A stretch of DNA of 56,667 bases from Rhizaria sp. SCN 62-66. Lineage: Eukaryota. Where the stretch lies: positions 62,001 to 118,667 of the forward strand of contig MEDY01000034.1 of the NCBI GenBank assembly GCA_001724265.1. Direction: 5' to 3'. Numbering within the stretch: position 1 is the stretch's first letter; each line of letters starts with the position of its first letter. Of this stretch, positions 1,002 to 51,244 are shown one piece after another. Below the pieces are notes generated by a model. The model saw only the letters and a list, made by a program, of their open reading frames with translations, did not search any database and was not told the DNA's origin. The translations under genes and the position numbers were made by a program.

Positions 1002-4000
1002 TTATTGAGTGTCACTGTCCTGTTGGTGGCTATTTTGATACTTCATCTTGACCTCCGCGCGTCGGGCTTTACGCTCATCGCGTGTCTTGGCCTTCTTATC
1101 CTCCAGTGCACGCGAACGCAGTTCATCAATCACAGTAAAGGGAACATACATTTCACTCGAAGCAGTTGCCGCTCGTGCAGCTGGGAGACCAAGCTCGCGT
1201 AGCGTCACTGTGGCGTCGGTATGGAACTGCTGCATCACATCTCCAAAAAACGGCTTAGCATCACTGTTCAAGTGCAGCGACTGCAAGCATCCGTGCGTTG
1301 TGTCGAACGCTGAGGCGAAGTCGGGGTAGAGCAGTGCGGCCGCCGTGGGGTCGGAGAAACGCAACGCAACATCACTCGAGTTGCGAGCTTGCTTGGCGGC
1401 AGTGATTAAGTCAGTGTTACTCGCAGTCTACATTGTAGCAAGAGGAACATAACACGGAATGTGCGCCTAACAGCTCTGCACACCACTGCCATTCACCGCA
1501 CTGTTAGCAGCGGCGACACGCATCGGTGCGATAACAGTCGAGAACTCGCGACGAGTAGTCTTTATGTTGTTCTGCACACCGCCAGTGGTACTAGAGCGAC
1601 CAATGCTGGCGATCTTGCCGCTACCAGCAAACCACTGCTTGCTGGCGCCACCAGTCTTTAAGTCACCCGCATTTGCGTTGTCGCGACTCGTCTTATTGTC
1701 GCTGCCTGCCTTGTTATTGTTAGGCGCTACGGTCACATTGGCACCAGCAGCAGTGGCGTCAGCAGCACTCGCAGTAACAGCAGCGGCAGCGGCGGCGGCG
1801 GCGCGGTCGGCGGCCTCCCTGTCACGGCGGTTCAGCCGCGAGCCTTGCACGCGCTTCGCTGTGGCGTCAATCGCCGCGCTTGCAGTTGCAGCGCACTTGT
1901 ACGAAGTGTCCAAGGCATCACCTGCGGCAATGATTGACAGCTCGGACTGCAGCGACGCAGGGCGGAGGAATGCGGAAGCAGCACGGATACGACGCTTGTT
2001 CTCCGCGGCAGCAGCAGCAGCGGCGGCGGCTGAGAGGGGGGCTGGTGGGGGGAGCGCCGCGGCAGCAGCGGCTCCGGGGCGCAGCGGAGCGCGAGCAAAC
2101 GCGGGCAACTGTGCAACAACAGGAGGTGCGACGGCGCCCGCAGCGGCGTTTGCGGCGCTAGCACTGTTGATCGCGGCTTGCGCGCGCGCCTCTGCGTACC
2201 GCGCCAGGGGCTGCGACGCGAACATGAGCGTGGAGACCATGGGCGTCCGCTGCGGCCACATCCAGTGCGCCACGCGCACGCCGCGGAGCACCACCGGCGG
2301 CGCGTCGGGCGCGACGAAGCGGCGCACGCGGCGCGGAACTGCGTCGTAGAAGGCCTTGGCAGACTCGAGGCCCTGTTGAGTGCGCTGCAGCAGGACGCGC
2401 GCGGTGTTGAGCGACGCGGTGAGAGAGCGGCGCGGGGCGGGGGGCCAAGAAGTGACCGCGGCAGCGGCGGGGGTGTAAGGCGCCAAGGGCGCGGGCAGCG
2501 AAGACTGAACGAGTGCGGCAGCAGACGCGGCGTCGGGCGTTGACGAGAGCACAGCAGAGCAGTGGGCAAGGAAAGCAGCATCTGCAGTGAGCACGTTGTC
2601 GACATCAGACAGCTCCTTCAGGCTCTCTGTGATGCGGGACTGGGTCGTGTACAGCAGTCGCTTCAGGCCTGTGGCAAGGTCAGAGCCGCGGATCGATAAC
2701 GTGCCACTGGTTGACTGACGCAAATGGCCGAACAGCGGAGCGATTGCGTGGATGATGCCGTCCTGCAGCACCAAGTCAGGCGCATGCGCGGTGCCGCAAC
2801 GAATCTGGAGCTCGCGAGGCACGCCGATGTGCGGCTGTAGCGACGGGCCACCACGACCGCCAGCATGAGAGTTGCTGGTGTTGTTCTCAGCAAACTCAGT
2901 GTTTGCACGAATGTGACTGTCGAGCAAAAGCGCGAGCGCAGTGTGCATCTTGAGTTGCGCAGTACCAACGCGATCGCCAGTTACATCAACACGAACAACC
3001 GCGTTGGAGCCGTTGTTGGTGTTAGAAACACCAGCAGTGCTCCCATTGTTCCCGTTCTGACCGAAGGCGGACGGCGCTAAGCCTGCCTGCTGCAGAGTCA
3101 GATACTGCACAACGCCTTCCTCGAGAGACTGTTGCGGCAGCGACTTGGCGACAAAGTCCAATGTGTCCTCAGTCGCACCGCCCGCGGCCGCCACAGCTTC
3201 AGCAGCCTCCGCAGCCTCGGCCGCAATCTCAGCGTCGGACTGCACCGGGGGCGCAAAGAACCTGCTTCCCCCGCGCGCACCGCCGCGCGCGCCACCGAAG
3301 CGCGGAGGGGGTGCGCAGGCGGCCGCGTGCGCCGCGAGCACGGTGGCGCGCGTGGAGATCATGTGCGACAACAGCTGCGTGGCAGCGGCGGGGAGCGGCA
3401 CGCGGTGCAGCAGCTCCAGGGCGAGGTGCAGCATGCGGCTGTCGGGCTGCGGCAGCCGGATGGGCAGGCGCGACAGCAACTCGCTCGTGGAAAACGGCGC
3501 GTTATTGCGATTTGCGGAGCTGGTCGAGAAGTGCAGCAAAGGGGCCGCGGCGTCGCTCTCAGCGCTAGTGGACTTGCCGGTCGTGTTGAAGCCGAGCCTG
3601 GAGATGACTTTGTCCATCGCGCCCGCAAGCGTCACGGTTGGCGCGGCGCTGATCGGACTCGCAGCAGCAGACTCAGAGCCAGCGTCGTCGCTCCCGGGAA
3701 GAATGCTGGCCGCCACAACCGGCTTCTGCTGGTCACGGGACGAGGGACCATGGGCGAGCGCAGCGGCCGCGGCAGCCCAGTACATCCGCATCACGCCCTG
3801 CCACTCGCGCAGCACGAGGCGCGTGACGACGGCGTCGGCGTGCGGCGCGTACAGCGGGGGCAGGAACATCTCGTGGCTCTCGCCGCGCCACACGGCGTCC
3901 ATCATCGCAGTGTTCTCGTCAACAGCAACGCCGGCACGGGAAGCGAGAGAGGCACAGCGCATCACCGTAGACTTCTCAGCGAACACAGACCCGTGGCGGA

Positions 4001-7000: not shown

Positions 7001-8753
7001 CGCCGCTCGCCTCACTCGGGGCCGCGCGGCCCATCAGCTGGCAGTGCGCAGCCCAATCCGCAAGCGCGGTGAGGTAGTCGCGCGCGTCTGCGTTCTCTGG
7101 CAGCAGCAGCACGTGGGCAGCGAGCACGGGCCGCCACGCCGCGACGGCCGCCAACGATGGCTCATCCAGCCCGCTCGGCAGCGGCGCCGCGCGCGGCCAC
7201 AGCGGCCGCACCGCCGGCAACGCCGCGAAGGCCGCCGCGACGTCCACGTCCACGGCCGCGTCCGCGCCCGCGGCATCCTTGTGCGCGTGCGCGGGGAGGG
7301 CGGCGAGCGCGGCGGCGAAGGGCGAGGGGGAGAAGTAGCCCGCGCCGGGCGGGCAGACGGGCACGGCGGATGGCACGGCCTCGCGGGGCGCGGCGAGCAG
7401 CGCCGCGCACAGCGCAGTCACGGGCGAGAGCGCCTCCGCGAGCGGCTGCTGCAGCGCCGCGCCCGCGTCGTCGAACAGCGCCGTCCGCGCGCGCCCGTCG
7501 TCGGAAGACGCGTTGTTGTAGAACGACGTCAGCGGGCTGCTGCGGCCAAAGTCGTCAGCAGAGGCCGCGGCGCCCCCGCCGCCGCGGGAGGCGTTGCCGG
7601 TGATGAGGCCCAGCAGCGTGAGCCGGCCCTCGAGCTGGACCTTCTGGAAGACGTCCACCTCGTCGGGCGCCCAGTCCGCGGACGCGTGGTTGACGCAGCC
7701 GCTCTTCCTGAGCGCGGCGCCCGCGCTGGTGCCGAAGTCGCCGCGCGGGATGGCGTCCAACTAGCGCTCGGCGGCCTCGCGCGCGCGCTCGCGGGCCTCA
7801 ACCTCGGGCCCATGTTCGCGCCGCGCCGCCTCGGTCATCTCGGCCCACAGCCGGCCCAGCACGGCCGCGTACGTCGCCACGCATGGTACCAGGCGGAAGG
7901 TGCGCCGCATGGTGTTGAAGAGCTCGAGGGCGGCTGAAGTCTCGTCGTGGCGCAGCGCGTCGGCGATGGCGCGGTCAAACAGCGCGCCCAGCGCGGGGTC
8001 GTCCGCCTCCACGGCCAGGCACGGCAGTGCGCCCAGCGCCAGTGCGTCCGCGGGCAACGCGGCCTGAGACAGGGCCGCGTGGCTGAAGCGATTGGCGAGC
8101 GTGCCCGCGGTGACGTAGAGCGCCTGGCGCGAGCTGTGCCGCGACTGCCGCGCGGCGCGCGAGTCGTACGCGCCGCCGTCGAGCGCGCCGCCGTCGCCCG
8201 CGGCGTCCGTGTCGAACCGGTCCCGCGAGCGGGCTGAGGGCCCGAAAGAGTTGAGCGCCGGCCCCCAGAAGAAGGTGTCGACAGTGGACACGCGCGGCGC
8301 CAGCGGGTCCAGCGAGACGCGAGACGCGGGTTCGTCCTCGCGCTCGCCCAGCGGCCGCAGCGGCGGCGCGGTGGTGGCGGGGGCGGCAGCAGCGGGGGCG
8401 GCGACAGCGGGCGCAGCGACAGGGGCACTGGAGGAGAAGTGGCGCGCAGACGAGGCGTGCGCGTGCAGCGCGGCGCGGTGAGACGCGCGCTGGGAGAGCT
8501 CTTGGCCGGACACAGCGGTACTATCCACAAGCGTGCGCGCGGACATGAGCGGTGATGTTTGTGAATAAGCTGGAGCCTGAGTATGGACAGCCGCAGCTGA
8601 TGAACAAGAGAGAGGCGCTCCAGCAACGGACATGGACTGTACGGTGGGTGCGGAGGGGCCGTAGGCCAGGGACGAGGCCGCACCAAGGGTGGGCGTGCGT
8701 GAAATAAACGCGCGGGTGCCCAAAATGGGGCGGGCCAACAGCCTTGAGGTCAT
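1002..8753 (-). CDS. Giant pentatricopeptide-repeat protein (~2583 aa), probably mitochondrial, with a degenerate SMR-like domain; contains 3 in-frame TAG codons
   Basis: Track ORFs 7761..8774, 1467..7760 and 1002..1364 are in one frame, separated only by TAG at 7761-63, 1467-69 and 1428-30; the frame ends in TAA 1002-04. First ATG at 8753 gives MTSRLLARPILGTRAFISR (Arg/Ser-rich, presequence-like). PPR-like motifs: ALELFNTMRRTFRLVPCVATYAAVL; ALSLLSVLRRAGYEPSLHTYTQVLSAL; PDAVAYNVALSCC...LLGKMKSMDVAPTAVTFTQVL. Confidence 0.82.
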
Positions 8754-9261
8754 GAAGGCTGTGGGAGTGCTCACACAACGCAGCTTGTGAGCAGTTGGTG
8801 CGTGGGGTAAAAAGAGTGTGTGTAAAGAGTGTTACTCAGATTCTACAGAGGTTTAATTAAAGACAGTAAAATAAAAGTGACGTAAAAATCTGGGCATTTG
8901 GTGGTGTGACTATTGAACGAATATCTGTTAGGATATAGTTGCTTTCAGGTGAGGCACTTGTCACCCTCATCGACCGAGATGGGCAAGCTGGAAGATCTCG
9001 CCGTCGAGCAACGGATAGGGTGAAAAAAAAACCTATATTGCAGATCGAAACATCCGTCTACGCTTTTGTGTTTTGGGTAACACAGACCCCACGTCTGTTT
9101 TTATATGTTTTTCTTTTAATAAGTTCTCAACCTGATAATATTCTTGTCAAACCCGCTTCGTGTACAGGCTGTGTAGAAACTGACAAAACTCTTGCCATCG
9201 CGCCTCTCTTGCTAAGCAGCAACTCGCGTCATCGACAGTGAGAAGAGCTGCAGAGGTTAGG

Positions 9262-12200
9262 ATGGACCTGCCTGGTGATGGGGCTGCAACGGGTGAACTA
9301 GGCTTTGCTCCGCCAGTGACTGCCGCTTCGCCAAGCCCCCGCTACGCTCCTGCCCCACCCCACCTCAAGGAGATGCCTCACCGTCTTCGCGTCGAGGCCC
9401 CCACTGTCACAATGCCTGCAGAGAGTACAAAGCCGCATGCAGCGACTGAAGACGCGCTGTTTTTACCGATTACACCTTCGATTGGCGATGATATTGAGTC
9501 GCCGGAGCATCAAAATCAATCTAGACGCAACCCAACAACAGATGCCAGAGCACCTGCCGCTCACACCCACACCGCCAGCAGCCCTGGTTACGCGCCTCCA
9601 GTTCGCGTGAGCGTGAGCGTGCTGACGGTCGCCTCCCCGGCGCAGTCGCCCGTGGTGTCCCCGTCGCATTCGCAGCCGTTCGCGGCGCTGCCGATGCCCG
9701 AGTACGGCGCCGCGACGCTGACGGCCGCACCCAGCGAAGCTTCCGCAAGCACCAGCGACGTCGGCTCGCCGCGCAACGCCGCCGCCAGGGGCTACGGTTA
9801 CGGCGCGCACTACGCTAATAGCGCGGGGGACGCTGCGAGCGCGGGTCCGGCTAGCAGCCGAACCGCTGCGTCGGGCTACAGCAGCCGGCACACGGTGGGC
9901 TCGCCGTCGTCGCGGCCCGCGTCGCTGGCGTTTCCGCCGCTGATCGCCGCGTTGAACGCGCTCGCGATCGCGCCCGAGTCCGTCCCGCTGCCGCCCACGC
10001 CGCGCGCGCTACACCAGTGGTTCGCGGCCCGCGCCGCGTAGGATGCCGCAGCACGCGCTGAAGCGCGGGGACGGGCCGAGGCAGAGGCAGCGGCGGCGAG
10101 AGAGAAAGCCGCGCTGGTCAAGGACATCGGTGTCGTGATGACGTCGACGCTGGTCACAGTTGCTGCGACGCCAAATTTCCCCGTGCACAGCGGTGCTCAG
10201 AACAACAGCAACGTCCAGAGCTCCAAACAGAACTCGAGCAGTGGCATTACATCATCTGCAAGTGCGTCTGCAAACAGCGACAACAGCACCAACAACAGCA
10301 GCGGCGGCGGCAACAAGACTCCACGCACGACTGCACCGACTGCTCCTGTCGCCGGTCCTCTCGGCGCCAGCGCTGGGACGCCACGTGCGATGGCACCGAT
10401 GGTGCTCGTGTCCGTGGCCGCAGAAGCGCACGATGTCGCCCTCGGCCACCCCCCGCTCAGCCACGCGCAAGGCGACCACGCGAGCTCGCAGCCTGGCACG
10501 GTCGCGGTGGACGGCGAACCCGTGTCCGCGACCGCGGCCGCGCTCATTGCAGCGCACCGCGCGCAGCTGGCCGCCGCCAGCAAAGGCAGCAAAGGCAGCA
10601 GTAGAAGCAGCAGCGACACGACCAATGTGGGCGGAAACAGTGCGAGGCGTGTGGTTGCTCCTGGCCTTGCCGTCACAACGACTGCAGCCAATGTAAGCGG
10701 TCGTTTGAATGCTAATGCGACTCTGATGCCGTTTCGCTCGCGCTACACAATGATGCCACCTGCGCCTGCAAACAGCGTCAACAACAGCGGAAATGCAATG
10801 GCGAACCAAAGTGACGCAAAGACAACGGAGCAGCAACAAGGCTCTTTAAGTGCTAAATCTGCGTTGAATGTCAACCCCGCTAAGTCTATCTTCGCGAGTC
10901 CCAAGCTTGCTGCGCTTGCCGCGCTCGGCTCCGCGAGCAGTGGCAACGGCAACTTCGGGAGCACAAGCACCATTCTGCCCCTCTCCAGCCCCAATGCGAA
11001 CGACGAGGCAAGCAACGCTGAGATCGGCACTACGAGTCACGGAGTTCACACTGAAACCGCCGCGCGCCCTCCCCTCTTGACGGCTGCGGGGGGCGCGAAC
11101 GCAGGCGCTGGCGTCACTGCTGGTGCCGGCTCTGGGGTGTTACACTCCGCTCTCCGGAGACAGCCAAACAAGCCTCCCGCTTCGGACACCGTCACCGCGG
11201 TCACCGTTGCCGCAGCGTCTGCGGGCGTAGCCGACGCACCGGCTACTTTTAGCGGCATGCATCATGATGAGAACGCAGACGGTGAACGACAGAGTGTCGC
11301 TACACTCGGTGGTCTGATGGGACATGGACTATTTGCCGACTCCGCAGCGCAAGAAGAACAGTATCTTGATCGGAATCACCAGCACAACAACGGCATGTTG
11401 CTGTCAGACATGTTCTCTGGGTCTGCACATGTCGGAGCTCGGCACGGCAACGACAGTGCTGAGTCTGGTGCTGGGTGTGGGTTCGAGTCAGTCGAGTATG
11501 ACTCACTCGACATGGCGCTTGCGTCAGCCTACCCCGTCCCCCCAGCCGCTCACAGTCCGGCCTACAGCTGCAGTCTCTTTCCGAGCAACGGACTCGCCGG
11601 TGCTACAGGGAGTATTGCAGCGAGCGGCAGCCGCTCTAGCGTGCTACTTGCAGCGGCGTCGGCGTCCCTGCACGCGCGGCCAACGCCGGCTAAACCGAAG
11701 GCAAGCAGCCTGCTGCCAACGACAGCAGCGGCGACTCCTGCGCGGCCCGCCGCGGGAAGCGCCGCCACCGCCACGAGGCAGCGCAGTGCGAAAAAGCCAG
11801 ACAATGATGCGAGCAGCGAAGTCAAGGGTCCAGATGCCGCTGTGGCTCCGGAAGCTGTTAAAGAGCTGTCTGATGCCACAGCGCATGGTGATGCTCAGAG
11901 CAAGGTTGCAGGTGGAAGTGTGAAGAGTGACGCAAAGGGCAAAGCGACTGAGAGCTCTGCAGTTGACGCCGCGTCGCTCACAGTCGACCACGGGCCCGTT
12001 GTGCCGTACCGCTCGGCGAACGCGTCCCACGGTCACTCTGCTCGCGACAAATCGACCCATAGTCACGGTGTGGAACACCAGAAAGATCAGGATCAGCATC
12101 ATCCGCAAGCGAAGCCTCGCACCCGCACCTCTGCTGCTGTTGCGCTTCCTGAAGCTGCAGCTGAGATTAGTCTCAACGACTTGCTGCTGCCCGACTTTGC

Positions 12201-13296
12201 GCCTGCCACGCTGTCGCCCGCCGAAGCCGCCGCCGCTGCGGCAGCCGCGCGCGCGTATGGGCCCAAGCGCGGTCGCGGAGCCTCCACCTTGCCTTCCGCG
12301 ACGAAAGGCGCGAGCGCGGCGTCTCAAACAAGAGTGGCTGGTGCAAGCGCTCTTGATAGAAATGCAGAGTTGGGACAAGATGGCGGAAAGATCAAAAGCC
12401 GCAATGTGAGCCCACTTAGCAGCAGTAAGTCGACCCGTGCGCTATTGCCAATGCGCGGTCCGCTGTTGCTCCAGTTTCCCAAAACTGAGCCGACAACTGT
12501 AACTGCGCCTGACGCCGTGGCGAAGAGCTGGGCGACGGCCAACAACAACGCACAGCGCCAGGCCGCTGACACTGACAACCACGGTGCCGATGGCACTTGC
12601 GAAGATGAGGCTGTTGGTAAGCACAGCACTTTTCTTCGTGCCAACGCGGCCAAATTCTCGTACGCGTTCCAGCAACAGCGCAGTTCTCCTGCGAAGGCAC
12701 CCGCAAACAGCGGTGCCAGCACAAGCACAGCGACTGCGATCAAGCCGAGTGTTGCTGCGGCTGCGGCGGCCGCTGCGAAGGCCGATTGCGGTCGGCCGCG
12801 GCGCCGCCAGTCCGCGATTCTGGCCGGCCCGCAGTCGGGCTGGGGCGCGGACATGGCGCTGGACTTCAGCCAGTTCAAGGCGCCGCCGCCTGAGGAGCCC
12901 GCAAGCGTCGCTGACGCTGCGCCTGTGGCGGATGCAGCAGCGATTTCTCCGGTGGCAGTTACGGATGTTGCGGCAGATTCTAAGGCAACGGGTGTCACTG
13001 ATGCTGCGAATGATAGCGCCACCAGCAAGAGGGCTGTTGGCACGACGAGTGGCGCGTTCGCGTTCTACCAGAACCAGGCAGCCACGCTGTCTGCGCAGCG
13101 CACCAGCGGTGCGACGCACCGGCTGCTGCGAGGTCCCCACGTCGCCGTCGCGCCAATGACCGTGGGCGCCGCCCAGCTGGGGCTGGGGCCGACGCCGGCG
13201 GCGGCGAATGGGCTGTCTCCGTATAACTACAAGTACCAGCAAGCGGTCGCTCCAGCGGGTACGGCTGGTCAACAACGCAAGAACAAATAGCTATGA
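9262..13296 (+). CDS. Uncharacterised Ala/Ser/Pro-rich low-complexity protein (~1344 aa); 2 in-frame TAG codons
   Basis: ATG at 9262. ORFs 9238..10041 and 10135..13290 are in frame and joined across TAG 10039-41 (FAARAA*DAAARAEARGRAEAEAAAAREK). The last TAG (13288-90) is followed by CTA and TGA (13294-96), then AT-rich sequence. Confidence 0.7.
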
Positions 13297-13463: not shown

Positions 13464-16400
13464 TTACTCGGTATCCGTTTCGATCGTAATCGCCTTAGCA
13501 ATGTTGCGGCCGGCCCTGATAAACGCTTCCATGCGCTCCTTTTTGGTCTTGGCCTTTTCAGCAAACTGGCCCGCCGCCTCCGCAGCCTTGGCTGCAGTGC
13601 AGTCGAGGTCCACCTCGAGGTGCTCGTGCCGCACCGTCATCGGCGTCGACAGCATCGGCCGAGCGCTCTCGGCTGCGAAATCGCCCTCGGCCTCCGCAAC
13701 GCTGCGCGCGAACGCGGCCGCGCCCGCGATGGCCGCTGCTGATAGCCCGGGACGCGACTTCGGCCTGGGCGTTACCGGCTGCAGTCGCGCCTGCTGTCCG
13801 GGCTCCGCCGCGAGCTGGGCGAAGAGCTGCTGCTGCCGCAGTGAGGCGCGCTGCCGCAGCTCCTCCGCGGTCGGCGGCGCGGCGGACAGCGGCACGCCCA
13901 TGTCTGGCGTCTTGCTCACAACAACGGAGCCGCCGCCGCGGCCGCCGCGAGCCCCACCGCGAGCGCCGCCACGTCCACGGATGCTGCCGCCGCGCCCGCG
14001 GAAGCCGCCGCGGTTGCGCACACTGGCGGCGACGGCGGCGGCGGCGGCCGTGCGCTGTGCCTGCAGGGACACCGACACCGGTATAGGCGCAAGTGCGGGT
14101 GATGCCTCGAGAATGAAGCGGTTTGGTGGGCGCCTCGCCGCACCTGCCTGTGCTAGGGTAATCTGTGGCAACGACCCCTCAGGCGCAGCTGCGTAGCCGT
14201 GATCGGTGTCGATGGTATCGTCAGCAAAGTCGATCGCGTCGTCGGCGCCGCCGCCGTAGTCGAACTCGTGTAGGCTGTCGCTGCGCGCGTCAAAAGAGAC
14301 GTGCCTGCCGCCGGCGTGGGGCGGGGAAGTCAGGCCGCCGCCTCCGCGCGCCGCCTCGACCTCGGCGAACGCGCTGCTGCCCCAGCCGCGAGCGCCGTAG
14401 TCGCCTCCTGGGCCGCCGCTGACGTCCACACTCTCGAACTCAAACGAGCGGCTGGTGTTGGCCGAGCCGGGTGACGTAAAGCGGTACTCGGTAGCGCTGA
14501 TGTTTGTCGCGCGCGTGCGGTCGCTATGGTGAGCTGATGTCTGCAGCGAAGCCAGCGCCGGTGACGCTGAGTGTGACAGTGACAACGACGAGTGAGTCGA
14601 TGAAGACGACGACGACAACGCTGACGCTGAGGGCGCTGAGCTGTACAACGCGTCCCTGTACTGCGCGGCCGCGGTCCTCCCCACGGCTGCCGCCGCGACG
14701 GCCGCGGCAAGCCCGTCTTGGTAGCCACTGGTGTAGCGCGCCGCGCCCTGATCCACCGCGGAGGCCGCGCGCTCGGCGTCAGCGAGCACATCGGCCAGCG
14801 GCCGCGGCGCCCAGCGCGGCGCCCAGGACGCGCGGGACGCGGGGCTGTAGCCGCCACTGCCGGGGGGCCGCGGCTGCCGCTGCCGCGACTCATTGTAGTC
14901 GTTGTAATTGCGGGCGGAGAGTGGGGCGGAGTCTGGCGGGTACTTAGATGCCGTGTAAGTAGGGCTGCGCGGGTTGTACTCCGGGTTGTACGTATCCTCA
15001 GCCGCCGCGTGCGGACTCGGCAGCCTTGCCTCGGCGCTCTCGCGCTGCTGCTTGGCCTCCTCCTCCTCCTGTTTATGCGCTGCGGCGCGCTTGGCGGCCG
15101 CGATCGACAGATGCAACAGTTCGCGCGCCTGTCGCGCGCTCTCGGCTGCGAGCTCCACCACAGCAGACGCGGCGGTGCCGCGGGCGGCGGCCTCGCTGCC
15201 GCTGTCATCCCCGTTGCCGAGCGCATCGCCGTACTTCACGTCGCTGTCGCTGTCGCTGTTGTCGACGTCGTCGTCGGCGGCCTCGCCCAGCTCCTGCCGC
15301 AGCGCACGCGCACGCGCACGCGCCTCGGCCGCGGCGGCCTGCGCACGCGCGCGCGGCCGGGCCGCCGCGGCGACGGCGGCGCTGGTCCGCGCGGCTGCAG
15401 CGGCGAGCTCGGCAACCGTCCCGGACCGCTCCGTGACCGTGAGCTGCGCGCGGGTCGCCCTGTCGAGCCGGGCGAAGCCGTCGGGCGAGAGCAAGGCCGC
15501 CGTCTCCGAGTCGTCCTCGTCGCCGGACCCGCGGCCGTAGCTGCTGCCGGCGTCGCTGTCTTCGCCGCTGCCGCCGCCGCCGCCGCTCTCGTCGCCGCTG
15601 CTGTCGCTCTCGCCGCGCGGCGCAAAGCCGCCAGGGCCGAACTCGCCCGGGGCGAAGCGACCGTTGGTGCCGAAGTGACCGTGGGCGGCGGGGTAGCCGG
15701 GCAGCCACGGCGCGGGCGCGAACGCGCCGGGCACTGGGAACGGGTAAGGGCCGTATGGGTAAGGGGGGTAGCCGCCCATGTATGGGGCTTGTGGTGGCGC
15801 GAAGTACGGACTGAACGGTGGGAACGCGCCGCCGCCTCCGGGCCCAAGCGGCTGGGCAGCGCCGGAAGTGCTGGAGCCGGCGGCGCTCGCCCCTGGCGGG
15901 ACCAGGACAAAGCGGAACCCCGTGCTGTCGATGGTCGGCACGAGCACGGGCTGCCCTGCCTGTCGCTGCTGTTGCTGCGCAGTGCGGGGGCGCGCGCCCT
16001 GCTTATGCGTGTCGTCGTCTGCGTCAGTCACGTGGGTTGCGGGCCTCTTGAGTCCTTTGCCGCCCGCGCGCGCCCCCTGCTGCTGCAGCTGCTGCGGGTG
16101 CTGCTGCTGCAGATGTGGAAAGAGCTGGCTGTACTGGCTCTGAGCAAGCTGCTGCTGCCATTGCGCTGCTGCTGCCGCTAGCTGATGCTGCTGCTGTTGC
16201 TGTTGCTGCTGCTGTTGTTGCTGTTGTTGCTGCTGTAGTGCAAGCAGCAGCGGCAGAGTCGCGTCAGTTGTCGGTAGTGCTGTTGATGCGGCTGACTGTG
16301 AACCGTTGGGCAGCGAGAAAGTGAAGCCGCCCCACGACACCGTCGGCCGCGCAGCGCCGCCGCCGCCCCCGGGCTTTCCCTCTGCATCGCTGTCACTGTC

Positions 16401-19400
16401 ACTCCCGCTCTCGACCGCCGCAGGAGCAATGCGGGCTGCGCGGGCAACAGCGGCTGCAGCGGGCGGCGCGGCAGCAGATGCGGCCCTCAACGCGGTCTTC
16501 TTGCCGTTGCTGTCAGCGGTGGCTTGGGCCTTAGCAGTGGTCTTGTTATATGACTCGAACGCAGCCGCCCAGATCCCTTCTTCGACACTTGTTTCATCGC
16601 CGATGGCATTGTCGCCACTGTCTTGGGGTCGCGCCGCAGCAACAGCAGCGGGGTTGTCTGCATCGAAGCTGAAGCCTGTGTTCAGGCCGTCGTCGTCGCT
16701 GGCGCTTGTACTCTCGCCGCCGCGCTCTTGCTGCTGTTGCTCAAGCTCGCGCTGATGCTGCTTGCGCTGCCCCAAAGTCAAGCCGCCGTCGGACGCAGCG
16801 TCGCTCAGCGCAAGGGCCCGCGCGGTCAGCGGCCGCTTGCTCTGGCCGGCGAGCCCGCCCAGACTCACACTTGTCGCGTTCAGCCCCGACCCTGCCCCGG
16901 CCCCCGTCCCCGCCTTTGGTCTCTCCGCGCCGGGGGCCGTAGCGCTCATTGCAGCGCCGTTGTTGTTGTTGCCGTCTCCCGCCTCCCCACCCGCGCCCGC
17001 GCCCGCGGGGCCGGATGCGGCGCTATGCGCGCCGCTGGTGCGGGCCTTGGTCCGCAGATGCTCCACGCGGCCGCGCTGCGACTGCTGCTGCCGCGACAAG
17101 CTTGCGGTGAGCGGCGGTGTATATTCCGCGCCGCGCTGCCCCACGGTTGCTGTTGGCAGCGCTGCCGTGCTTGCAGCGTGTCCGCCCTGCAGCTGTTGCT
17201 GCTGGCGCTGCTGCTGCTGCTGCGGTGGTGGTGGTGGCGTCAGCTCGAGTGGGTGCGCGTCTAGTACGCGCTCCGTGCGCCGCGGCTGCTGCGCCTGCTG
17301 CGACAGAGCGAGGGGCTGTTCGGTGTCGACTGAGAATAGCGGCGCGATGGGCAGCAGCCACGGCGAGGAAAACGGACTGTCCCAGCCCCCACCCCGCTGG
17401 CCCGCAAAGGCCCCCTGCGCAGTGCTGTCGCCGGCGCGCGTGCTTGTGCGAGTGCGTGTGCGCGTGTCCGGCGTGGCGTGTTCTTGACGCTCCTGGGGTT
17501 GCGTTTGTTGCTGTTGCGCGTGCTGCAGCTGCGTGTGCTGGATCTGTGTGTGACGCAACTGTGTGCGCCCGCCCTGATGCTCCGCGTAGTAACGCTCGAG
17601 CTGCGTGTCGACAACCATTGGCACTGGCAGCGATGACAACAGCGGCTGCGTCGGCGTCAGCGGCTGCGGCTGCAACGGCGGCTGCGACAGCGCGGCCGTC
17701 AGCCACTCATGCGGCTGCACCTGCGCCTGTGTCTGGGACTGAGACTGGGGCTGAGACTGGGGTTGGGGCTGGGACGGCGGACGGGGCCTCGTATACAGCA
17801 GAGGCTCCTGCTGTTGTGTTTGCTGCTGCTGTAGTTGCTGCTGCGGCTGTCCTACCTGCGGCTGCGCATGCTGTGACTGGGACTGTGTCGGCCCGTAGAA
17901 CAACGACGACGGTCGCTGCGGCTGGGCGTGGGTGTGTGTGTGAGGCTGCGCGGGGGAAAGCGCCTGTGCGTGCGAGCGTGGCTGTGTGTCTGAGCGCGGT
18001 TGTGCTTGCGGCGAGCGCGTGGGGCTCCTGTACTGCGGCAGCGGCGACAGAGGGTCGTACTCGCGGCCGGCGGCACTTAGACCCGAGGTACTTACCCGCG
18101 CAGCCGTCGTCGCTGCGCTGTGGCGCTGTCGCGGCTGCCGTGGAGGCATCAGCGCCCCAAACGCCACGCTAGTGCTCGCATTGGCACTCGCATAGCTCGC
18201 GCTCGCAGTCAAGTTATGGGCGCTGTTGACCGGCGCGGTGCGCGCCTGCTGGCCCGGCGGCGTCGTGTCGGGCGAGGACGACGACGCCAGCGGGTGCTGC
18301 GGCCGCTTCGCCCCGTTGAGACCGCTGGCACTGCGGTTGCCCGCTGCGGCCAAGTGGCCGTGGCCGTAATCGTGGCCTGGCGCTGAGTGCCGGCCGTGGC
18401 GCCGCGCCGCCCCGAGCCGCGGACTGCCGGCCGGCGTGGGGTGGTCCGCGGGGATGCGGGCGCGCGCGGCGTCGCGCTCGAGTCGCAGCTGCTCGCCCTC
18501 AGGCAGCCCGTGCGCACCGCGGCCCTGTTGCTGCTGTTGTGGCTCCGGCCCTTCTAGGCTGAGGTGCTGCAGCTCAGCCTGCGTTTGCGCCTCGAGCTGC
18601 GCCTGTTGCTACTGCAGTTGCTGTTGCTGTTGCTGTTGCTGCTGCTTCTTGATCGCGTTAGCGGCTGAGAACGCGGGAAAGATGCTGCCGCGCAGCCGCA
18701 GCGTCGGTGACTTGAACGCTCCGCCCTGGGTCAGCCTACTCATTGTCTTCAAGCCTGCGCTCACAGTCTTGGAGCCGCTGGCTACAGCGCCTGCACCGAC
18801 GCCCACGACACGGCCCCCGCTCGCGGCCGCGGCTGCAGGGGCCCCGACGCTGGTGCGCACCTTGGCAAGCGTCTTGGTTGCCTTCGCTGCGCTGGCAGCA
18901 GACTTGGCCGTGGAGGCTGAGGCGGTTGCTGCAGCGGCCTGCTGCTGCTGCTGCTGGGACTTGGGCGAGACCGGGAAGTCGTACAGCATCGCCTTAATGG
19001 GCTCTAGGTCTAGGTCTGCGCTGTCACGCATAGCCGCGTCTGCGCCGGCGCCAGTGCTAGCAACAGCAACGGTGCCAGTCACAGTGCTGGAGGCAGTGCT
19101 GGCGAAGCGGCGTTTGTCAATGATGTCCTTATCTTTGTCACTTGGCTTGCGCTTGTCTTTTTCGCTTCCCTTCAGGTTGGGGCCATCTTTGACAGATGTT
19201 GTTGCTGTTGATGTCTTTGAGTTCATAGCCGTCGCTGCGTGCACCTGCGCCTGTGTCTGCGCCTGCTGTGTGTTTTTCGCGGCGAGCGCCAGCTCCGCGA
19301 GCGGGCGTCGGCGCACGCTGTTCACGGCGGCGGGCTTGGAGCCCGTCGCGCGCCGGTGCAGCGACACCACCGATGACTCCACAGCGGCCGCGCTGTCGGA

Positions 19401-19679
19401 GGAATCGGCGTCCCGGGCCGGCGGGGCGGATTGCCGGTGCTGAAAGGGCTTGGCTGCAGAAGTCGACGCGGCGACGGCGGGCTTGGACGAAGGCGCAGGA
19501 AGAGGGTTTTCCTTTAACGCGCCTGTGGAGCCATGCAAAAGCACAGAGAGGCCGCCAGAAAGACTATCCAGAATATCTGTGGAGGTACCGGCTGGCGCTG
19601 CATCATTTATGTCGAGATTGATGGGATCCGATGTGGATCGACGGCGGGAGCGGACAATAAGTCCGCTGGACTTGCTCAT
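13464..19679 (-). CDS. Uncharacterised Gln/Ala-rich low-complexity protein (~2071 aa); 1 in-frame TAG inside a poly-Gln tract
   Basis: ORFs 18609..19679 and 13464..18353 share a frame. I translated 18608-18354 by hand and it is stop-free (QQAQLEAQTQAELQHLSLEGPEPQQQQQGRG...). Ends in TAA 13464-66. Confidence 0.75.
16184..16234 (-). repeat. CAG/CAA trinucleotide tract encoding poly-Gln
   Basis: The + strand reads (ctg/ttg)n and corresponds to the long Q run (LLLALQQQQ...QHQ) in the 13464-19679 gene. Confidence 0.8.
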
Positions 19680-20189
19680 CTGTGAGTTAGAATCAAATCA
19701 AGGCCTTATGTTCGATCCCCGAAGCTGAAGATGAACTTATAAAAGGATTCAGCAGAAATGTTAGATTTAACACTAGTTGGTCAATTTTATCATAATATTA
19801 CGATAGATTCAAGTCGAATTATGAGTAGAATTTTTGATCTCTGTCGAAGTTCTTGCTGACCACAAGTTGGCGCCAACACAGCCAACGGCTATGAAATGTC
19901 AACAAGTGCGGATGTACGTGTACTGTATCTAGTTCTGCGGCAAATACTTCTATAAAAACAGTGTTTATTAATAAACAATTCCTATACTACAAACGATACT
20001 GTGTTTCTTTTTGACTTCTTTCTCTTTCCTCCGTCTTTCTTTAAAAAACAAGCGGAGATGCTACTCATGCTCGTAGCCTCCTATCGCTCAGTTTCCGCTG
20101 CATAACAACTTAGAAGCAAAGTATCTTCTCATAAAATTGATGTTTCCTGGACCATGATTGTACAAACGGACATGTTGGCGCTTGTGTAC

Positions 20190-26200: not shown

Positions 26201-29200
26201 AGTGTTGAGCACTCGACTCCGCAACAGTCACGGCTGACTTGGCCTGCTCAGCAGCTGCTGCCGTGGCCGAGCTGTGCTTGGCAAGCTCAACCTCTAGTCG
26301 TGCCACGTCTGACCTCAACTGTGCAGCCTCTGCAGTAGCAGCCTGGGCAGCTGCGGCGATCATCTCGCGTACCGTTTTGTTCTCCTCGGACATTGTTTTG
26401 CGCTCTTCTACCGCCGCCGCTGCAACCGCCTCCGCGATTACACTGCGAAACGCAGCTGCCAGTGCATGCGCACCTGGCACTTGAGTCTTGTTTGCGCTCC
26501 TTGCTGCTGTGCTTAAAGCTAATGCAGCTGCTGAGAGCATGACCTTGACGCCCCGCGCGCCGAGTAAAGCAGCGCGCTGGCTCCGAATCCGCGCAGTGTT
26601 GGCTGCAGACTTCGCGGATGCTGCTAATGCGGACACATCTGCAGCTGTTGCAATGATTGTCTCTACCGCGGCACTAACAGTAGAGACACCGTCGCGCACG
26701 GTTAAAGCCGCTGCCTTTGCCTCTGTTGCCACTTCTTGTACAGTTGCAGCAGTTACGTTTGCTGCGGTCAAGTTCTCCATGGCGGTCACTGCAGATGCTG
26801 TTGCAGACGCCGCGCTTTGCGACGCCTCACTAGCAGCCGCTAAAGCTTCACTGTGCATTGACTCACACGCACTTGCACGTTGCTCTACGGCCCCAGCCGT
26901 TGTGCGAACACTTGATATTGCAGCGGCAGCTTCTGTGCGCATAGTTTCTGCGATCGATGACACCTCTCGAGCCGTCGCCTAACACTGCGCAATTGCAGCG
27001 GTGCATTCTGACTGCGCAAGCTTGGCGGCATCGCTGCTTGACTGCGCGAACGCTGCCGCCGATGACGCAGCCGTAGCTGCCGCAGCTAACTCAGCACTGG
27101 CGGTTGCGCCAGTAGCGTTATGGAGTGCGGCTGCAGTTGCCGCTGTCTGTTGCGCTTCCTTGGTTGCTTGTAACGCCGCAGAGGCTGACTCTGCCGCCTG
27201 TGTAGCTGTTGTCGCGGCCTGAGTTGCAATCGCATGTGTAGTCTCTAGCTTTGCAGCGAGCGTGGTGGTGGACTTGCTCGCAGCACTTGCAACCCCAACG
27301 ACAGCGGTGGCCACGGCGGAGACTGCAGGCGCGAGTGTTGCCCTCGCAACCGATGCAATCTTCCCTGGTTGCAATGACTGTCCTAAAGTAAGTGATAGCT
27401 CCTGCTCAACGGCATTAAACGCACTTGAGTCGTTCATAGCAGTCTGCCACTGATCAGCCTTACTGCGGTTAATTGCAATCGTTGTATCGGTGCCGCCCGT
27501 TACCGACGGTGCACTTGAGCTAACTGCCCCGCCTTCAGTAAGCTCTCCCAAAGTTAACGTCATTTTCTGCAACTCGGTCTCACAGCCAGTTATCCTTGTC
27601 ATCAACGCCTGCTCGCTGTCACGCACAGCGTCAAACTGAGCTGTCAACTCGAGTCTTGTGCTGTCACTCTTTCCTTCAATATCATCAACCCTCCGTGTCA
27701 GAGCATCAACGCGGTGCTGAGTCGCTGCATTGGCTGCGGCATTAGCCTCCGCTGCCGCTGTATTTGCAGCGGTGGCGTTTTCCTTGGCGCTCTCAGCCTC
27801 CGTCAAAGCTTTTGTAGCTGCGGCGTGTGCCGCAGCAACTGTAGACTCACAGGATCGTAGATCACCTCTGAGCTTCTCAACGGCCGTCTCTGTAGTGTTT
27901 GACGCTACCTCACATCGCAGTAGACGCGCCTCAGCCCCGGCAACCGCATCTTCGCACATCTGCACAGCTGTCTCGCATTTGCTTGCACGCGTCCCAGCGT
28001 CGGCAGCCAGCCGCTCGCAGTCGCCGCTGCGGAGGCTGAAATCCGCAAGACGCGGCTGTAACGCGGCGTACTGCGCCTCGGCAGCTGCGGCGGCAGCGCG
28101 GGCACTGGTCGCATCAGATGCAGCGGTTGTCGCGGTCTCAGAAACTGTGGCAAGGGTGTTGGAGAGTTCCTCAAGCTGGCTAACAATGTTGAGCATTACG
28201 CTTGTTGTCTGCGAAGTCACTGCCTCAGTTGCACGCACGCCTCGGTTTGCAGACATCCCTGTAAGTGTTTCATCATCGCTGTTGGCAGAATCAATGGTTG
28301 TGGGTTGGAAACGCGAAATGACTGTCATCATGGCCGTTGCTGTTGCCGTTAGCTTTGCAGCCGCTGTTCCCAGATCCTGCATCTTGATACTCTCCACAGC
28401 GGCACTTGTCGTTTGCGCCTGCTGCTTACGCACAGAGCTGATGTTCCTCTCGCATGCGCTGACGCGCGCAACGCAGACGCGCACGCGTTCAGCCAACGCC
28501 AGCCACGCCTGCGGGTCTCCAAACGCGAGTCCCGGCGCCGTGAGCGCGAGTGGCGCTGAGGGTGCGAAGTAGTCGCCGCTCGCCAGCACTCGCGCTGCGG
28601 CAGCAGATGCGGCAGCGACCGGTCCGCCATAGCTGTCTTCGTCGCTTGCGCCCTCGGTGTCACCGGCACCGTCGTCGTCAATTGACGAAGATGACGGCGA
28701 CGAGGGTGACACAAGGCTGGCAGCATTCCCGGCGCGCTCGCGCCTTCGCTTGGTACGCATTGCAAACGCGTCGGCGGTGTTGTCTGAGCCGCCGATAGCG
28801 GCAGCTTCATCGAGATCAGGGCTCATAAACATCGCTAGGCGCGCCCGCGCAATAGCGTCAGGTGCAGCCATAATCCCAATCCCCCCAGCTGTGACTTCCT
28901 CTATCACAACGCTTGCACCCGCACCGCCCTTGCTCTTTGCATCACCCTTGTCCCTGCTCCCCCCAGTCGCTGCACGCTTGCTGCTGCTCATTCGCTCGCG
29001 CGTGACAGCCTCAACCGCTGCAGCAGCCCCGCCCAACGCTGCAACTAGTGGCAGTAGCGAAGCCACAAGTCCGGAGCTTGCTTCTGCAGTGGCCGACGCC
29101 GACGCTGACGCCGACGCACTGCTACTGCGACTGCCGGCCGATGAAGCGGCGGGGCGTGCAGCCTGGGCTGCTGCGGGTGCAGCAAGAGCCTCAAACGCCA

Positions 29201-30041
29201 GCTGTTCCTGTAAAGCCATGCGCAACGCAGTGAGAGTTGTGGCAGCCTCCGAGCTACCAGGCGGAGCTGTGGCGGCGGCAGTGGCGGCTTTGGTCAGCGA
29301 TGACGGCATTGGCGCTGTTAGAAAGCGAGTCGCACCAGGAAACAGGCGCTGGTGCGGTGGAACTGCGGGGACTTGTGGGCCGCGTGTGTGTTGCGCCTGG
29401 CGATAGTGTTGCGGTTGTTGCTGGTATGGCTGCTGCTGATACGAGTAGATGTTCCCTGTATTGCTGTTGTTTTCAGTGCTGTAAGGTAGGTACGCCATGC
29501 GGGACGACTGCATGGCGCGCACAAACTCGGTGTGAGATGTTGCAGGCTAATGCTGTGGCGGCGGACTGGCCTGGGAAGAAGGCATGGCTGTGTTATGATA
29601 AGGCTTTGCTCCTGGAGGAAGTCCGCCGCGTTCAGCAAGGTACGAGGCAGGTGTCCTGATGAAACCTTGTGCAGGCTGAACCAAAAGTTCGAAATGCAAA
29701 GTAAAAGTATTCCTTCAAGTTAGGCACTGCTAAAAGCTAAAACAAAACCCAGGAGTAAACTTGCACAGATTACAACAACAACAAAAACTTACCTGTGATT
29801 GTGAGAACTGAGTGAACCCGTCGTGTTGGGGTGGGGGCGAGTAATCGTCCCGGTACATACCGCCATGCTGCGAGCGCGGATAGCCTTGCGAGAGCGGCGG
29901 GGCAGTAGGACTAGCTTGAGATAAGCCCCTGTACTGGGAGAGTGGAGGCGCTTGCGATTGAGAGATGTCTGTATAACGAGAATATTGGTCCTGCCCTTGA
30001 GTCAGTGGCAGCCAGTTTCCATCCTGATCTCGGCCGTCCAT
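23277..30041 (-). CDS. Uncharacterised ~2215-aa protein: SQ/TQ-rich N-terminus, Ala-rich coiled-coil centre, disordered C-terminus; 2 exons; 2 in-frame TAG codons
   Basis: Exon 1 is 30041-29793, intron 29792-29676 (GTAAGT...TTCAG, phase 0), exon 2 is 29675-23277. TAG at 29547-49 (SPPPQH*PATSH) and 26979-81 (AAIAQC*ATAREVSS). Ends in TGA 23277-79. Confidence 0.72.
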
Positions 30042-49750: not shown

Positions 49751-51244
49751 TTACCGGCTCAGAATGTCGGCGAGGTCGATGCTGAGGAGCTTCACGGGGG
49801 CCAACGCCTCCCCGATGACCTTCATCCTCGCGAGCGTGGGCTCCGTCTTGTCCTCCGTCGCCACGGCCTTAACCTCCACCATCCAGTGCTGGCCGCGCGC
49901 CAGCTTCGCCAGGTGCGGCGCGGCGCCCGGGAACGGCAGCACGTAGCGGCGGCTCACGGTCACTTCGATGGCGTCGGCGACAGCGAAGCGGAAGCCGTAG
50001 GTGATGTATTCGAAGTCAAGCCGGCGCCCCATGAACCGCAGCAGCGACTCGAAGTTGCGCCCCACGTAGCACGAGTCAACCAGCCGCACGTTCTTCTGGG
50101 GCTGCACCGCGCCCAGGAAGTCGAGCCGCCAGTGGAGACCCGGGAGTAGCGCGCGGCTGGGCGGCTGCACGTGCATGCGCGCGAGCGCCAGCGCGGCCCG
50201 CGCGGCCAGCGAGACGGGCGCCGGCCGCAGCGGCGCGGTCAGCACAGCCGAGAGCGGCACTGCGCCGGCGCAGTCGCTGCCCACCGTCGCCAGACCAGCG
50301 TTCACGCCCGTGGTCGCTGCGCTGGCGTTCGCGGGCGCGTTGGCGGTGGAGGCGGCGGCGGCGTTGGCGGCGGAGGTGTCCGCGCCGGCGGGCGGAGCGA
50401 GCAAGGCTGCGGCAGGGCCCGCCGCGCCGCCACCGCCCGCCGCCGCCGCCGCCGGCTGCGGGCCGGTGACTGTGGCCGCCGCTGTGGCTGCCGACTGCTG
50501 CTGCTGTGAGGTTGCGGGGGCGGGGAGCGGGAGGTCGCTCCAGAAAAGCTCCAGGTCCGCAAAGGAGCGGGGGCAGCCCACGGCGGCCGCGGCGTAGACG
50601 GGGGCCGCGCCGAACGCGCCGACGCCAGCGCCGCCGAAGCTCAGCCCGCTCGCGCTCGCGCTGTCTGAGCTATTGAATGCGTCAGCGAGAGGGAGCAGGA
50701 GCGCGGGCGCGGGCGCCGGCAGCGGCAGCGCCATCTCGGCCCGCAGCTCGGCCTGCGCGGGCGAGAGCGTGGGGAGCGCGAAGGCCAGCGCGGCGGCCTC
50801 GGTCCCGCCCGCGGAGCCCGCGGCCGCGGTCTTGGCGGCGGCTGTGGCGGCGGCCGAGTCGGCGACCGCGTAGACCCTGTGGTAGGCGCAGAAGGGGACG
50901 AGGCGGACATCAACGTGCGCGGCCGTGTCGGGGAAGACAAAGCTCGCTGTGAGCTCGTCGTTTTCGTCGTTGACGCCCTCTTGCTGGCGCGCGCGGAGCC
51001 GCGTGAGCAGGGCGGCCTCGGGAACCGGGAGACGAACGACGAGGAGCCCATCGTCGCTGTCGGTCGACTGCATCATCGATAGCTTCTGCAGCAGCGTGTA
51101 CAGAGGCATGTTCTACACCGTGTCGGCCTGCTCGCGGGTAAGGTTGGGTGGGATGACGCCCAGTGGCACGACGCTGTGCATCGCGCAGACCTGCAGGCGG
51201 GGGCCGCCCGCCGCGGACTTGATCGCCGCGATCTCGGACGCCAT
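49751..51244 (-). CDS. MED18: Mediator subunit 18 (497 aa, large Ala-rich insert); 1 in-frame TAG
   Basis: C-terminus NFESLLRFMGRRLDFEYITYGFRF...WMVEVKAVATED...IGEALAPVKLLSID matches Med18. The frame extends upstream through TAG 51113-15 to ATG 51244 (MASEIAAIK...LQVCAMHSVVP...EQADTV*NMPLYTLLQKL). TAA stop. Confidence 0.78.

Follow-up and report, generated by a model that had tools for sequence, protein, structure and literature searches.

The window analysed here is a stretch of 56,667 nucleotides from Rhizaria sp. SCN 62-66 (contig MEDY01000034.1, positions 62,001 to 118,667 of the forward strand), and our subject is a TAG codon at 18609-18611 (minus strand) that lies in frame inside a long gene. 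This gene (13464..19679, minus strand) is intronless and of low complexity, counts about 2,071 codons from its first ATG, ends in TAA and matched no Pfam family. Its frame extends over 13464-19697 (2,078 codons, with the ATG at codon 7), and the sole internal stop is the TAG at codon 363, within a run of glutamine (Gln) codons; 1,714 codons follow it in frame, and the two remaining frames of the minus strand hold 40 and 41 stops over the same interval. An earlier note on this DNA had quoted the minus-strand codons around the TAG exactly as they stand and had put the downstream frame at about 1700 codons, in agreement with our count; it took UAG to be a sense codon, for Gln. We come to the same view of UAG as a sense codon. 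As for its meaning, we argue that UAG is probably read mainly as glutamate (Glu).

Both flanks of the TAG score as coding in a self-trained coding model (+15 and +12), so the codon is not intronic; an intron acceptor at this position was entertained as a candidate and is ruled out by the same scores. The TAG recurs letter for letter in a contig of the public run X5 that spans 18270-19330 and differs from the window at four positions (18368, 18761, 19120 and 19211), none of them in the TAG; the kind of this run is unrecorded, and it might not be independent from the source of the assembly.

UAG at gene ends and inside genes

Gene ends were counted with a self-trained coding model over about 0.85 Mb sampled from the assembly (G000; 34.9 Mb, 714 contigs). 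Among 65 ends without a donor-like motif (one of them counted twice) there were 35 TAA, 30 TGA and no TAG, which sets a 95% upper bound of about 4.6% on the share of TAG; a further 68 ends with a donor-like motif (41 TAA, 25 TGA and 2 TAG) were set aside. Internal stops under strict coding scoring comprised six TAG, one TAA and one TGA. UAA and UGA are retained as stops, and UAG, missing from the clean gene ends and present in frame within coding exons including that of the release factor eRF1, is almost certainly a sense codon in this genome.

Domain matches that contained a TAG were cut out in 26 cases, 14 of which proved to be coding and 12 to be intron or acceptor sequence. The coding ones lie in eRF1, six kinases, SUV3, three ankyrins, two deubiquitinases and one ubiquitin-like domain. 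Searches with AAA, ABC, cyclase, WD40 and glutamyl- or glutaminyl-tRNA synthetase (GluRS/GlnRS) domains yielded no coding TAG, nor did those with kinesin (one match, an intron acceptor), DEAD (one, an acceptor), SNF2 (one, an intron) and EF-hand (one, an acceptor); the myosin search gave one match with both TAG and TAA, and no coding TAG was established there. The raw count of nine TAG-only matches among 142 kinase matches, tried as evidence, was overstated and has been dropped, four of the nine being intronic.

Exonic TAG is very rare, with about 38 curated cases in 203,000 codons; by extrapolation the whole assembly would hold roughly 1,000-2,000 coding TAGs. Seven dynein heavy-chain genes contain none in 28,414 codons (1,850 Glu and 1,362 Gln codons), and the frequency of TAG drops with the GC content at third codon positions (GC3), from 18 in 35,250 codons at GC3 below 0.7 to 2 in 66,457 at GC3 above 0.87. 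TAG is thus avoided in strongly biased genes. A public protein entry (P0123), identical to a kinase of this organism, stops exactly at the in-frame TAG, and shows how gene calling under the standard code shortens these proteins.

The residue opposite UAG

Two strongly conserved columns are the most telling. At the hinge of one kinase (L261), whose homologs were retrieved with a fragment ending ahead of the TAG, 164 of the 167 aligned rows carry Glu, two carry Pro, one carries Asp and none carries Gln, and the two nearest homologs both have Glu. The TAG column of eRF1 shows Glu in 106 of 117 homologs, Asp in ten, Val in one and again no Gln. The TAG of SUV3 stands opposite an Asp of the human protein, and a further kinase (L264) has Glu in 12 and Gln in none of 49 distant rows; the distant kinase sets for L263 and L164 were uninformative.

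Pfam profiles were scored at 11 of the 14 coding sites (left out were L169, an insertion; L177, which matched no Pfam family and is gapped in the PDB alignment; and L178). The summed bits were highest for Glu (646.1), followed by Gln (641.8), Lys (639.7), Ser (633.6), Tyr (630.3), Leu (624.6) and Trp (623.0); neither the ankyrin nor the SUV3 scores told Glu and Gln apart. Alignment of the TAG contexts with each other returned low-complexity noise only. Within the window, one TAG follows a Cys in a coiled-coil-like protein (26979..26981, minus strand), in which eight of the 12 other Cys precede Glu and none precedes Gln; set against 97 Cys-Glu and 71 Cys-Gln pairs in the sampled proteome (p 0.022), this habit would count as evidence for Glu from the window itself.

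A tRNA with anticodon CUA

A genome-wide pattern search, with which ARAGORN agrees, found a single tRNA gene with anticodon CUA (G000:C84:76008-76080, minus strand). It matches the Rfam tRNA covariance model with 58 bits and is followed by a run of T; its free folding is not significant (z -1.5), and the structural evidence is the covariance match. Over 73 positions it is identical to the organism's own Glu(CUC) tRNA at 47, compared with 40 for Glu(UUC), 36 for Gln(CUG), 32 for Gln(UUG) and 35-36 for the Leu tRNAs. It shares the acceptor stem and T arm of the host Glu tRNAs, its first five acceptor pairs being those of both of them, whereas the own Gln tRNAs start with G-C pairs. Of 120 bacterial loci that share a 20-base stretch of its D arm, 119 have it within a tRNA-Glu and none within a tRNA-Gln. 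Its variable loop has four bases, where the own Leu and Ser tRNAs bear a long arm. On these comparisons the CUA tRNA is of Glu type in its sequence. No Gln-type CUA tRNA and no UUA tRNA were found in the assembly with two genome-wide patterns and ARAGORN, and it should be kept in mind that the assembly may lack some tRNA genes. The organism's GluRS and GlnRS genes lie on contigs C207 and C9, respectively.

At positions 32 and 38 the CUA tRNA has C32-A38, the own Glu tRNAs C32-C38. GluRS charges a human tRNA-Glu fitted with a CUA anticodon no less well than the native tRNA, a C32-A38 pair increases suppression more than 20-fold, and an engineered variant places about 95% Glu at UAG (PMC12204705). 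The engineered suppressor tRNA-GluV13 and the natural tRNA have in common a Glu body, the CUA anticodon and C32-A38; they differ in that the natural one has A30-U40 and U31-A39, the engineered one G30-C40 (PMC12204705). The change that engineers picked for therapeutic Glu suppressors, C32-A38, is present in the natural tRNA as well.

As a separate observation, a UUA-anticodon tRNA whose arms are of Gln type occurs on a metagenome contig that also carries an eRF1 gene (L255:11904-11977), probably from a genome of the ciliate type in which UAA and UAG (UAR) are Gln.

The release factor eRF1

The sole eRF1 gene found (G000:C63) has its in-frame TAG at codon 111 (G000:C63:103463-103465, minus strand, locus L001). 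One metagenome contig matches it at 1626 of 1626 bases, and may have a common source with the assembly; a metagenome scan with eRF1 returned this one identical contig and no intermediate relative, while relatives at 81-84% do occur in metagenomes. The N domain, which recognises stop codons, carries (in human numbering) the changes T32S, G57S and T58K, plus a K to Q change in the YxCxxxF motif. Among 117 homologs, Thr32 and Gly57 are present in all and Thr58 in 116; the nearest relative (84%) also has Lys58 and keeps Thr32. Thr32 has been linked to the G of UAG, and Iotanema carries T32G (PMC5304391). Residual termination at UAG might persist here, because Ser is a milder change that keeps the hydroxyl at position 32.

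A TAG in this gene is in itself unexpected, at about the 1% level, since eRF1 (441 codons, GC3 0.90) falls in the GC3 class with only two TAG in 66,457 codons, its own being one of them. One speculative scenario, which we hold to be rather doubtful, is that the reassignment is caught midway: UAG no longer closes genes, a single Glu-type tRNA decodes it (in part perhaps as Gln), and some termination at UAG persists because eRF1 has retained a hydroxyl at position 32, so that the TAG at codon 111 acts as a feedback switch, more eRF1 leading hypothetically to more premature termination of eRF1. Plant eRF1 reportedly regulates itself through an internal or leaky stop, and bacterial RF2 does so by frameshifting. 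The likeness would be that a stop-like codon in a release factor's own message could tie its synthesis to termination efficiency; the difference is that here an otherwise reassigned UAG stands at codon 111 and the regulation is hypothetical. The idea is further weakened by being post hoc, by concerning a single site and by the residue of the nearest relative, which has Val at this column.

Interpretation and alternative readings

In the nuclear code of this organism, judging from sequence comparisons, UAG is probably a rare and disfavoured codon for mainly Glu, with translation still ending at UAA and UGA. Its decoder could have arisen as a copy of tRNA-Glu(CUC) in which A replaced both C36 and C38; glutamyl-tRNA synthetase would still charge it, and it would outcompete an eRF1 whose recognition of UAG is weakened. 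Decoding of UAG would be inefficient, with one tRNA gene compared to at least eight for GAG, and selection would therefore act against TAG in strongly biased genes. TAG codons might enter by two routes, the silent change of GAG to TAG and the transition of CAG to TAG, the latter tolerated as Gln-to-Glu at unconstrained sites. The TAG at 18609-18611 is most likely a Glu inside a Gln run that arose by the second route.

Several observations weigh against this reading. Coding TAG sites in recognisable domains number only 14, and the Pfam margin of Glu over Gln is 4.3 bits, 2.4 of which come from one site. RAF and EGFR kinases carry Gln at the hinge position. In a CaMK-like kinase (L163) the nearest homolog (81%) has Gln opposite the TAG, and 52 homologs at 48% or above include 18 with Gln, 14 with Lys and three with Glu. 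The TAG of a NEK-like kinase (L164) stands opposite Gln in human NEK1 (a single match), and for two TAGs in a virus-like open reading frame (ORF) on contig C681 the counterpart is Gln, as shown by host ubiquitin and an internal duplicate. A classifier based on neighbouring residues gave a Glu-minus-Gln sum of -2.6 over 27 curated TAG sites, unlike random sets of GAG or GAA codons (P 0.002 and 0.008), similar to CAG sets (0.64) and unlike CAA sets (0.99). As for the tRNA, two viral tRNA-Gln(UUG) genes (IMG/VR contigs L405 and L406), selected by the 5' 18 bases of the CUA tRNA, are identical to it at 53 of 73 positions and have the same acceptor stem, and the table of a review of tRNA identity lists neither a Glu nor a Gln set validated for eukaryotes (PMC9976931). 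The TAG column of eRF1 may also be relaxed in this lineage, because the nearest relative has Val there.

By the classifier, TAG contexts fall between pure Glu and pure Gln. We infer that the sites facing Glu include constrained columns and that those facing Gln are all variable or unconstrained. This is what UAG as Glu with a tolerated change of CAG to TAG predicts, namely Glu at constrained and Gln at variable sites; the same pattern is hard to obtain with UAG as Gln, because the rarer change of GAG to TAG would be needed at conserved Glu positions. An alignment of TAG mainly with Glu, which the earlier note had named as speaking against Gln, is indeed seen at constrained sites and is not seen at variable ones. 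Since Gln is the commoner residue opposite TAG at variable sites, we leave some small probability to Gln and a somewhat larger one to a mixture of Glu and Gln.

Such a mixture is the alternative that survives best, unlikely as we consider it to be. UAG would be ambiguous, either through partial mischarging of the Glu-type tRNA(CUA) by GlnRS or through wobble of the abundant tRNA-Gln(CUG) at the first position once eRF1 competes poorly, and former Glu and Gln sites would both tolerate TAG. This agrees with the finding that the counterpart of TAG is Glu in some places and Gln in others, with classifier scores that run to both sides (+2.4 to -4.0), and with the base that precedes TAG, in ten of 32 sites a C, as preferred by GAG, and in nine a G, as preferred by CAG. 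Every site facing Gln is, however, a variable column, a low-complexity run or part of a virus-like ORF, as pure Glu with CAG to TAG changes predicts likewise, and no Gln is reported for the engineered tRNA-Glu(CUA) in human cells in the portion of PMC12204705 that gives the figure of about 95% Glu.

Improbable, in our judgement, is a pure Gln code as in Iotanema, with TAG synonymous with CAG, which the earlier note had favoured because of the poly-Gln context of the TAG at 18609-18611. That context proves not to be diagnostic: among 71 single-residue interruptions of Gln runs we counted eight CAC, seven CCG, six GCG, six CTG, four GAG, four TAT and one TAG, and the argument is weak because such runs are often broken by other residues, with no enrichment of TAG shown. 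Also in favour of this code are the Gln opposite TAG in the nearest CaMK homolog, NEK1, host ubiquitin and the internal duplicate, the classifier, which ranks Gln first and 2.7 log units over Glu, and the likeness of the viral tRNA-Gln genes. Against this stand the total absence of Gln from the two constrained columns (0 of 167 and 0 of 117) and from the residues after Cys in the protein with the TAG at 26979-26981, and the CUA tRNA itself, the only one found, whose Glu acceptor stem and T arm are unlike the Gln-type stop-reading tRNA of the metagenome contig described above.

The standard code, under which the TAGs would be nonsense alleles, pseudogenes, assembly errors or leaky stops and the CUA tRNA a minor suppressor or a pseudogene, strikes us as very improbable. 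The rarity of exonic TAG would fit it, as would the share of intron or acceptor sequence among the inspected domain matches (12 of 26), the gene of the window that ends in TAG-Leu-TGA and the RNA contigs over parts of the window genes, none of which crosses a TAG among the pieces listed. It is at odds with the lack of TAG at the clean gene ends, with the excess of internal TAG over TAA and TGA, with the TAG in the sole eRF1 gene found and its identical metagenome contig (subject to the possibly common source), and with a CUA tRNA that is intact and has a suppressor-type loop. Leu as in exLh, or one of the other residues a single change away from TAG (Lys, Ser, Tyr or Trp), has a negligible probability, even though the clade is that of exLh (PMC5304391) and one ankyrin site favours Tyr, Leu or Trp: over the 11 Pfam-scored sites Lys, Ser, Tyr, Leu and Trp lie 6.4, 12.5, 15.8, 21.5 and 23.1 bits below Glu, the CUA tRNA has a four-base variable loop in place of the long Leu/Ser arm, and Leu, which the earlier note had rightly put up for testing, is on these sequence grounds excluded.

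Lineage and comparison with known codes

A GRP94 tree places the organism in a ten-row clade with Guttulinopsis vulgaris (support 100 in the Shimodaira-Hasegawa-like approximate likelihood ratio test, SH-aLRT), with Paulinella next (94). The tree comprises 54 rows (the query and 53 of 120 matches from a quick search) and is based on a single gene with long branches; it points to a probable position within Sainouroidea (Cercozoa, Rhizaria). The eRF1 gene has GT-AG spliceosomal introns of 134-292 bases, and the genome holds about 12 dynein heavy-chain loci, so the organism is a flagellated eukaryote; its exons are GC-rich. Wastewater and activated sludge are the origin of the public sequencing runs that contain the window (runs with a small share were excluded).

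The closest comparison is exLh, also of Sainouroidea, in which UAG is Leu and UAA and UGA are stops (PMC5304391). By the GRP94 tree with Guttulinopsis both fall in the same clade, and in both UAG alone is reassigned, UAA and UGA remain stops and UAG is rare in highly expressed genes. Apart from the amino acid, they differ in that UAG is far rarer here (exLh has 384 in 71 transcripts), in that a Glu-type CUA gene is at hand here and no decoding tRNA is identified for exLh in the available part of that source, and in eRF1, with L69A in exLh and a kept Leu69 but changed Thr32 in our case (PMC5304391). The two captures of UAG look independent, because UAG apparently still ends genes in Guttulinopsis and Rosculus. 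A description of the sainouroid genome of Rosculus vilicus, an amoeba with 37.7% GC, makes no mention of the genetic code in its available portion (PMC10770858).

In Iotanema spirale, Hartmannula sinica and Trochilia petrani, UAG is likewise the only stop codon turned sense, with the meaning Gln (PMC5304391, PMC9161772, PMC11687900); here tRNA and constrained columns point to Glu. Iotanema has in common with our organism an altered Thr32 of the eRF1 GTS motif, T32G there and T32S, with the hydroxyl kept, here; its UAG makes up about 8% of Gln codons, compared with less than 1% of Glu codons here (PMC5304391). Oligohymenophorea sp. PL0344 reads UAG as Glu and UAA as Lys and shares with our case a tRNA(CUA) that is closest to tRNA-Glu, but it is a ciliate in which UAA is sense, only UGA stops, ten CUA genes are present and UAG is abundant (PMC10553269); our organism lies outside the ciliates, stops most often at UAA and yielded one CUA gene. 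Blastocrithidia and peritrich ciliates, with UAA and UAG as Glu, also have a CUA decoder derived from tRNA-Glu and shun the reassigned codons in highly expressed genes; in them, however, both UAR codons are reassigned under AT pressure, in contrast to the GC-rich exons, the UAA and UGA stops and the lack of a detected UUA tRNA in our case (PMC12153298, PMC11687900).

UAA and UAG nearly always share their meaning (PMC11687900). In the available portions of the sources, the UAG-only reassignments on record are to Leu, Gln and Ser, and UAG is Glu only where UAA is reassigned too (PMC11687900, PMC10553269, PMC9161772, PMC12153298, PMC5304391). The present code would, on the sequence-level tests, best be filed among the UAG-only reassignments, outside the Gln, Leu and UAR-as-Glu types. 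A literature search, which left most subscription journals outside, showed no report of a code that reads UAG as Glu and retains both UAA and UGA as stops, and none of a second code among sainouroids. If true, this would be a second, different capture of UAG in Sainouroidea, by another amino acid than in exLh. It would answer the call for sainouroid genomes and supply a decoding tRNA of the kind absent for exLh and Iotanema (PMC5304391). Codon-capture and ambiguous-intermediate models might be directly testable here, given the persisting rarity of TAG and the availability of a whole genome.

Other features of the window and the genome

Beyond 18609-18611, the window holds eight more in-frame TAGs across four other genes; one of them is the TAG at 26979-26981 discussed above. 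Three lie on the minus strand in a PPR gene (1002-8831): one upstream of the PPR repeats (7761..7763) and two close to the 3' end with weakly scored flanks (1467..1469 and 1428..1430). Two lie on the plus strand in the gene at 9184-13296, at 10039..10041 and at 13288..13290, the latter two codons ahead of the final TGA (Lys-TAG-Leu-TGA, 13288-13296). This last codon is either a sense codon just before the stop or a rare true TAG stop, and is the sole such candidate in the window. Another TAG stands close to the start of the gene at 23277-29714 (29547..29549, minus strand), and the last one belongs to a Med18-like gene, where it lies 40 codons past the likely start and precedes the part matched by Pfam (51113..51115, minus strand). 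Three contexts that the earlier note had listed as compatible with Gln are all present, and they differ in what they suggest: PPPQH-TAG-PAT (29547-29549) is indeed Gln-like (-1.6), AAER-TAG-LDA (7761-7763) is Glu-like (+1.28), and the third is ARAA-TAG-DAA (10039-10041).

A pelota gene, a paralog of eRF1, occupies 19700-22400 (minus strand) and is split by introns. Other genes of the window match the families PPR, TELO2, CBF/Mak21, MORN, Era-like GTPase, Med18, peptidase M20 and transaldolase. ARAGORN also calls a 95-base tRNA-Ala at 33202-33296 (plus strand), opposite the TELO2-like ORF, which is probably spurious.

Elsewhere in the genome, a virophage- or Polinton-like stretch (G000:C681:3-5390; loci L273, L093 and L274) contains a 1,198-codon ORF that ends in a captured host ubiquitin and includes a Peptidase_S74 domain. 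The opposite strand holds an ORF, without Pfam or IMG/VR match, that we take to be like a capsid protein, and both ORFs contain an in-frame TAG. The organism's own ubiquitin genes (L091, L094, L095 and L098) each encode a separate monomer that begins with an additional Met-Ser ahead of the usual start and carries a three-residue tail, and no polyubiquitin was seen among them; an extra residue at the junctions of ubiquitin monomers is a rhizarian trait. The 18S rRNA gene (L034, G000:C706:4459-8903) measures 4,445 bases and is highly divergent, with several long insertions resembling group I introns, one of which contains an ORF-like stretch. Finally, on G000:C34:1-60000 and other contigs, many conserved proteins are hugely enlarged by inserts rich in Ala, Ser and Gln, with open frames of up to 10,115 codons.

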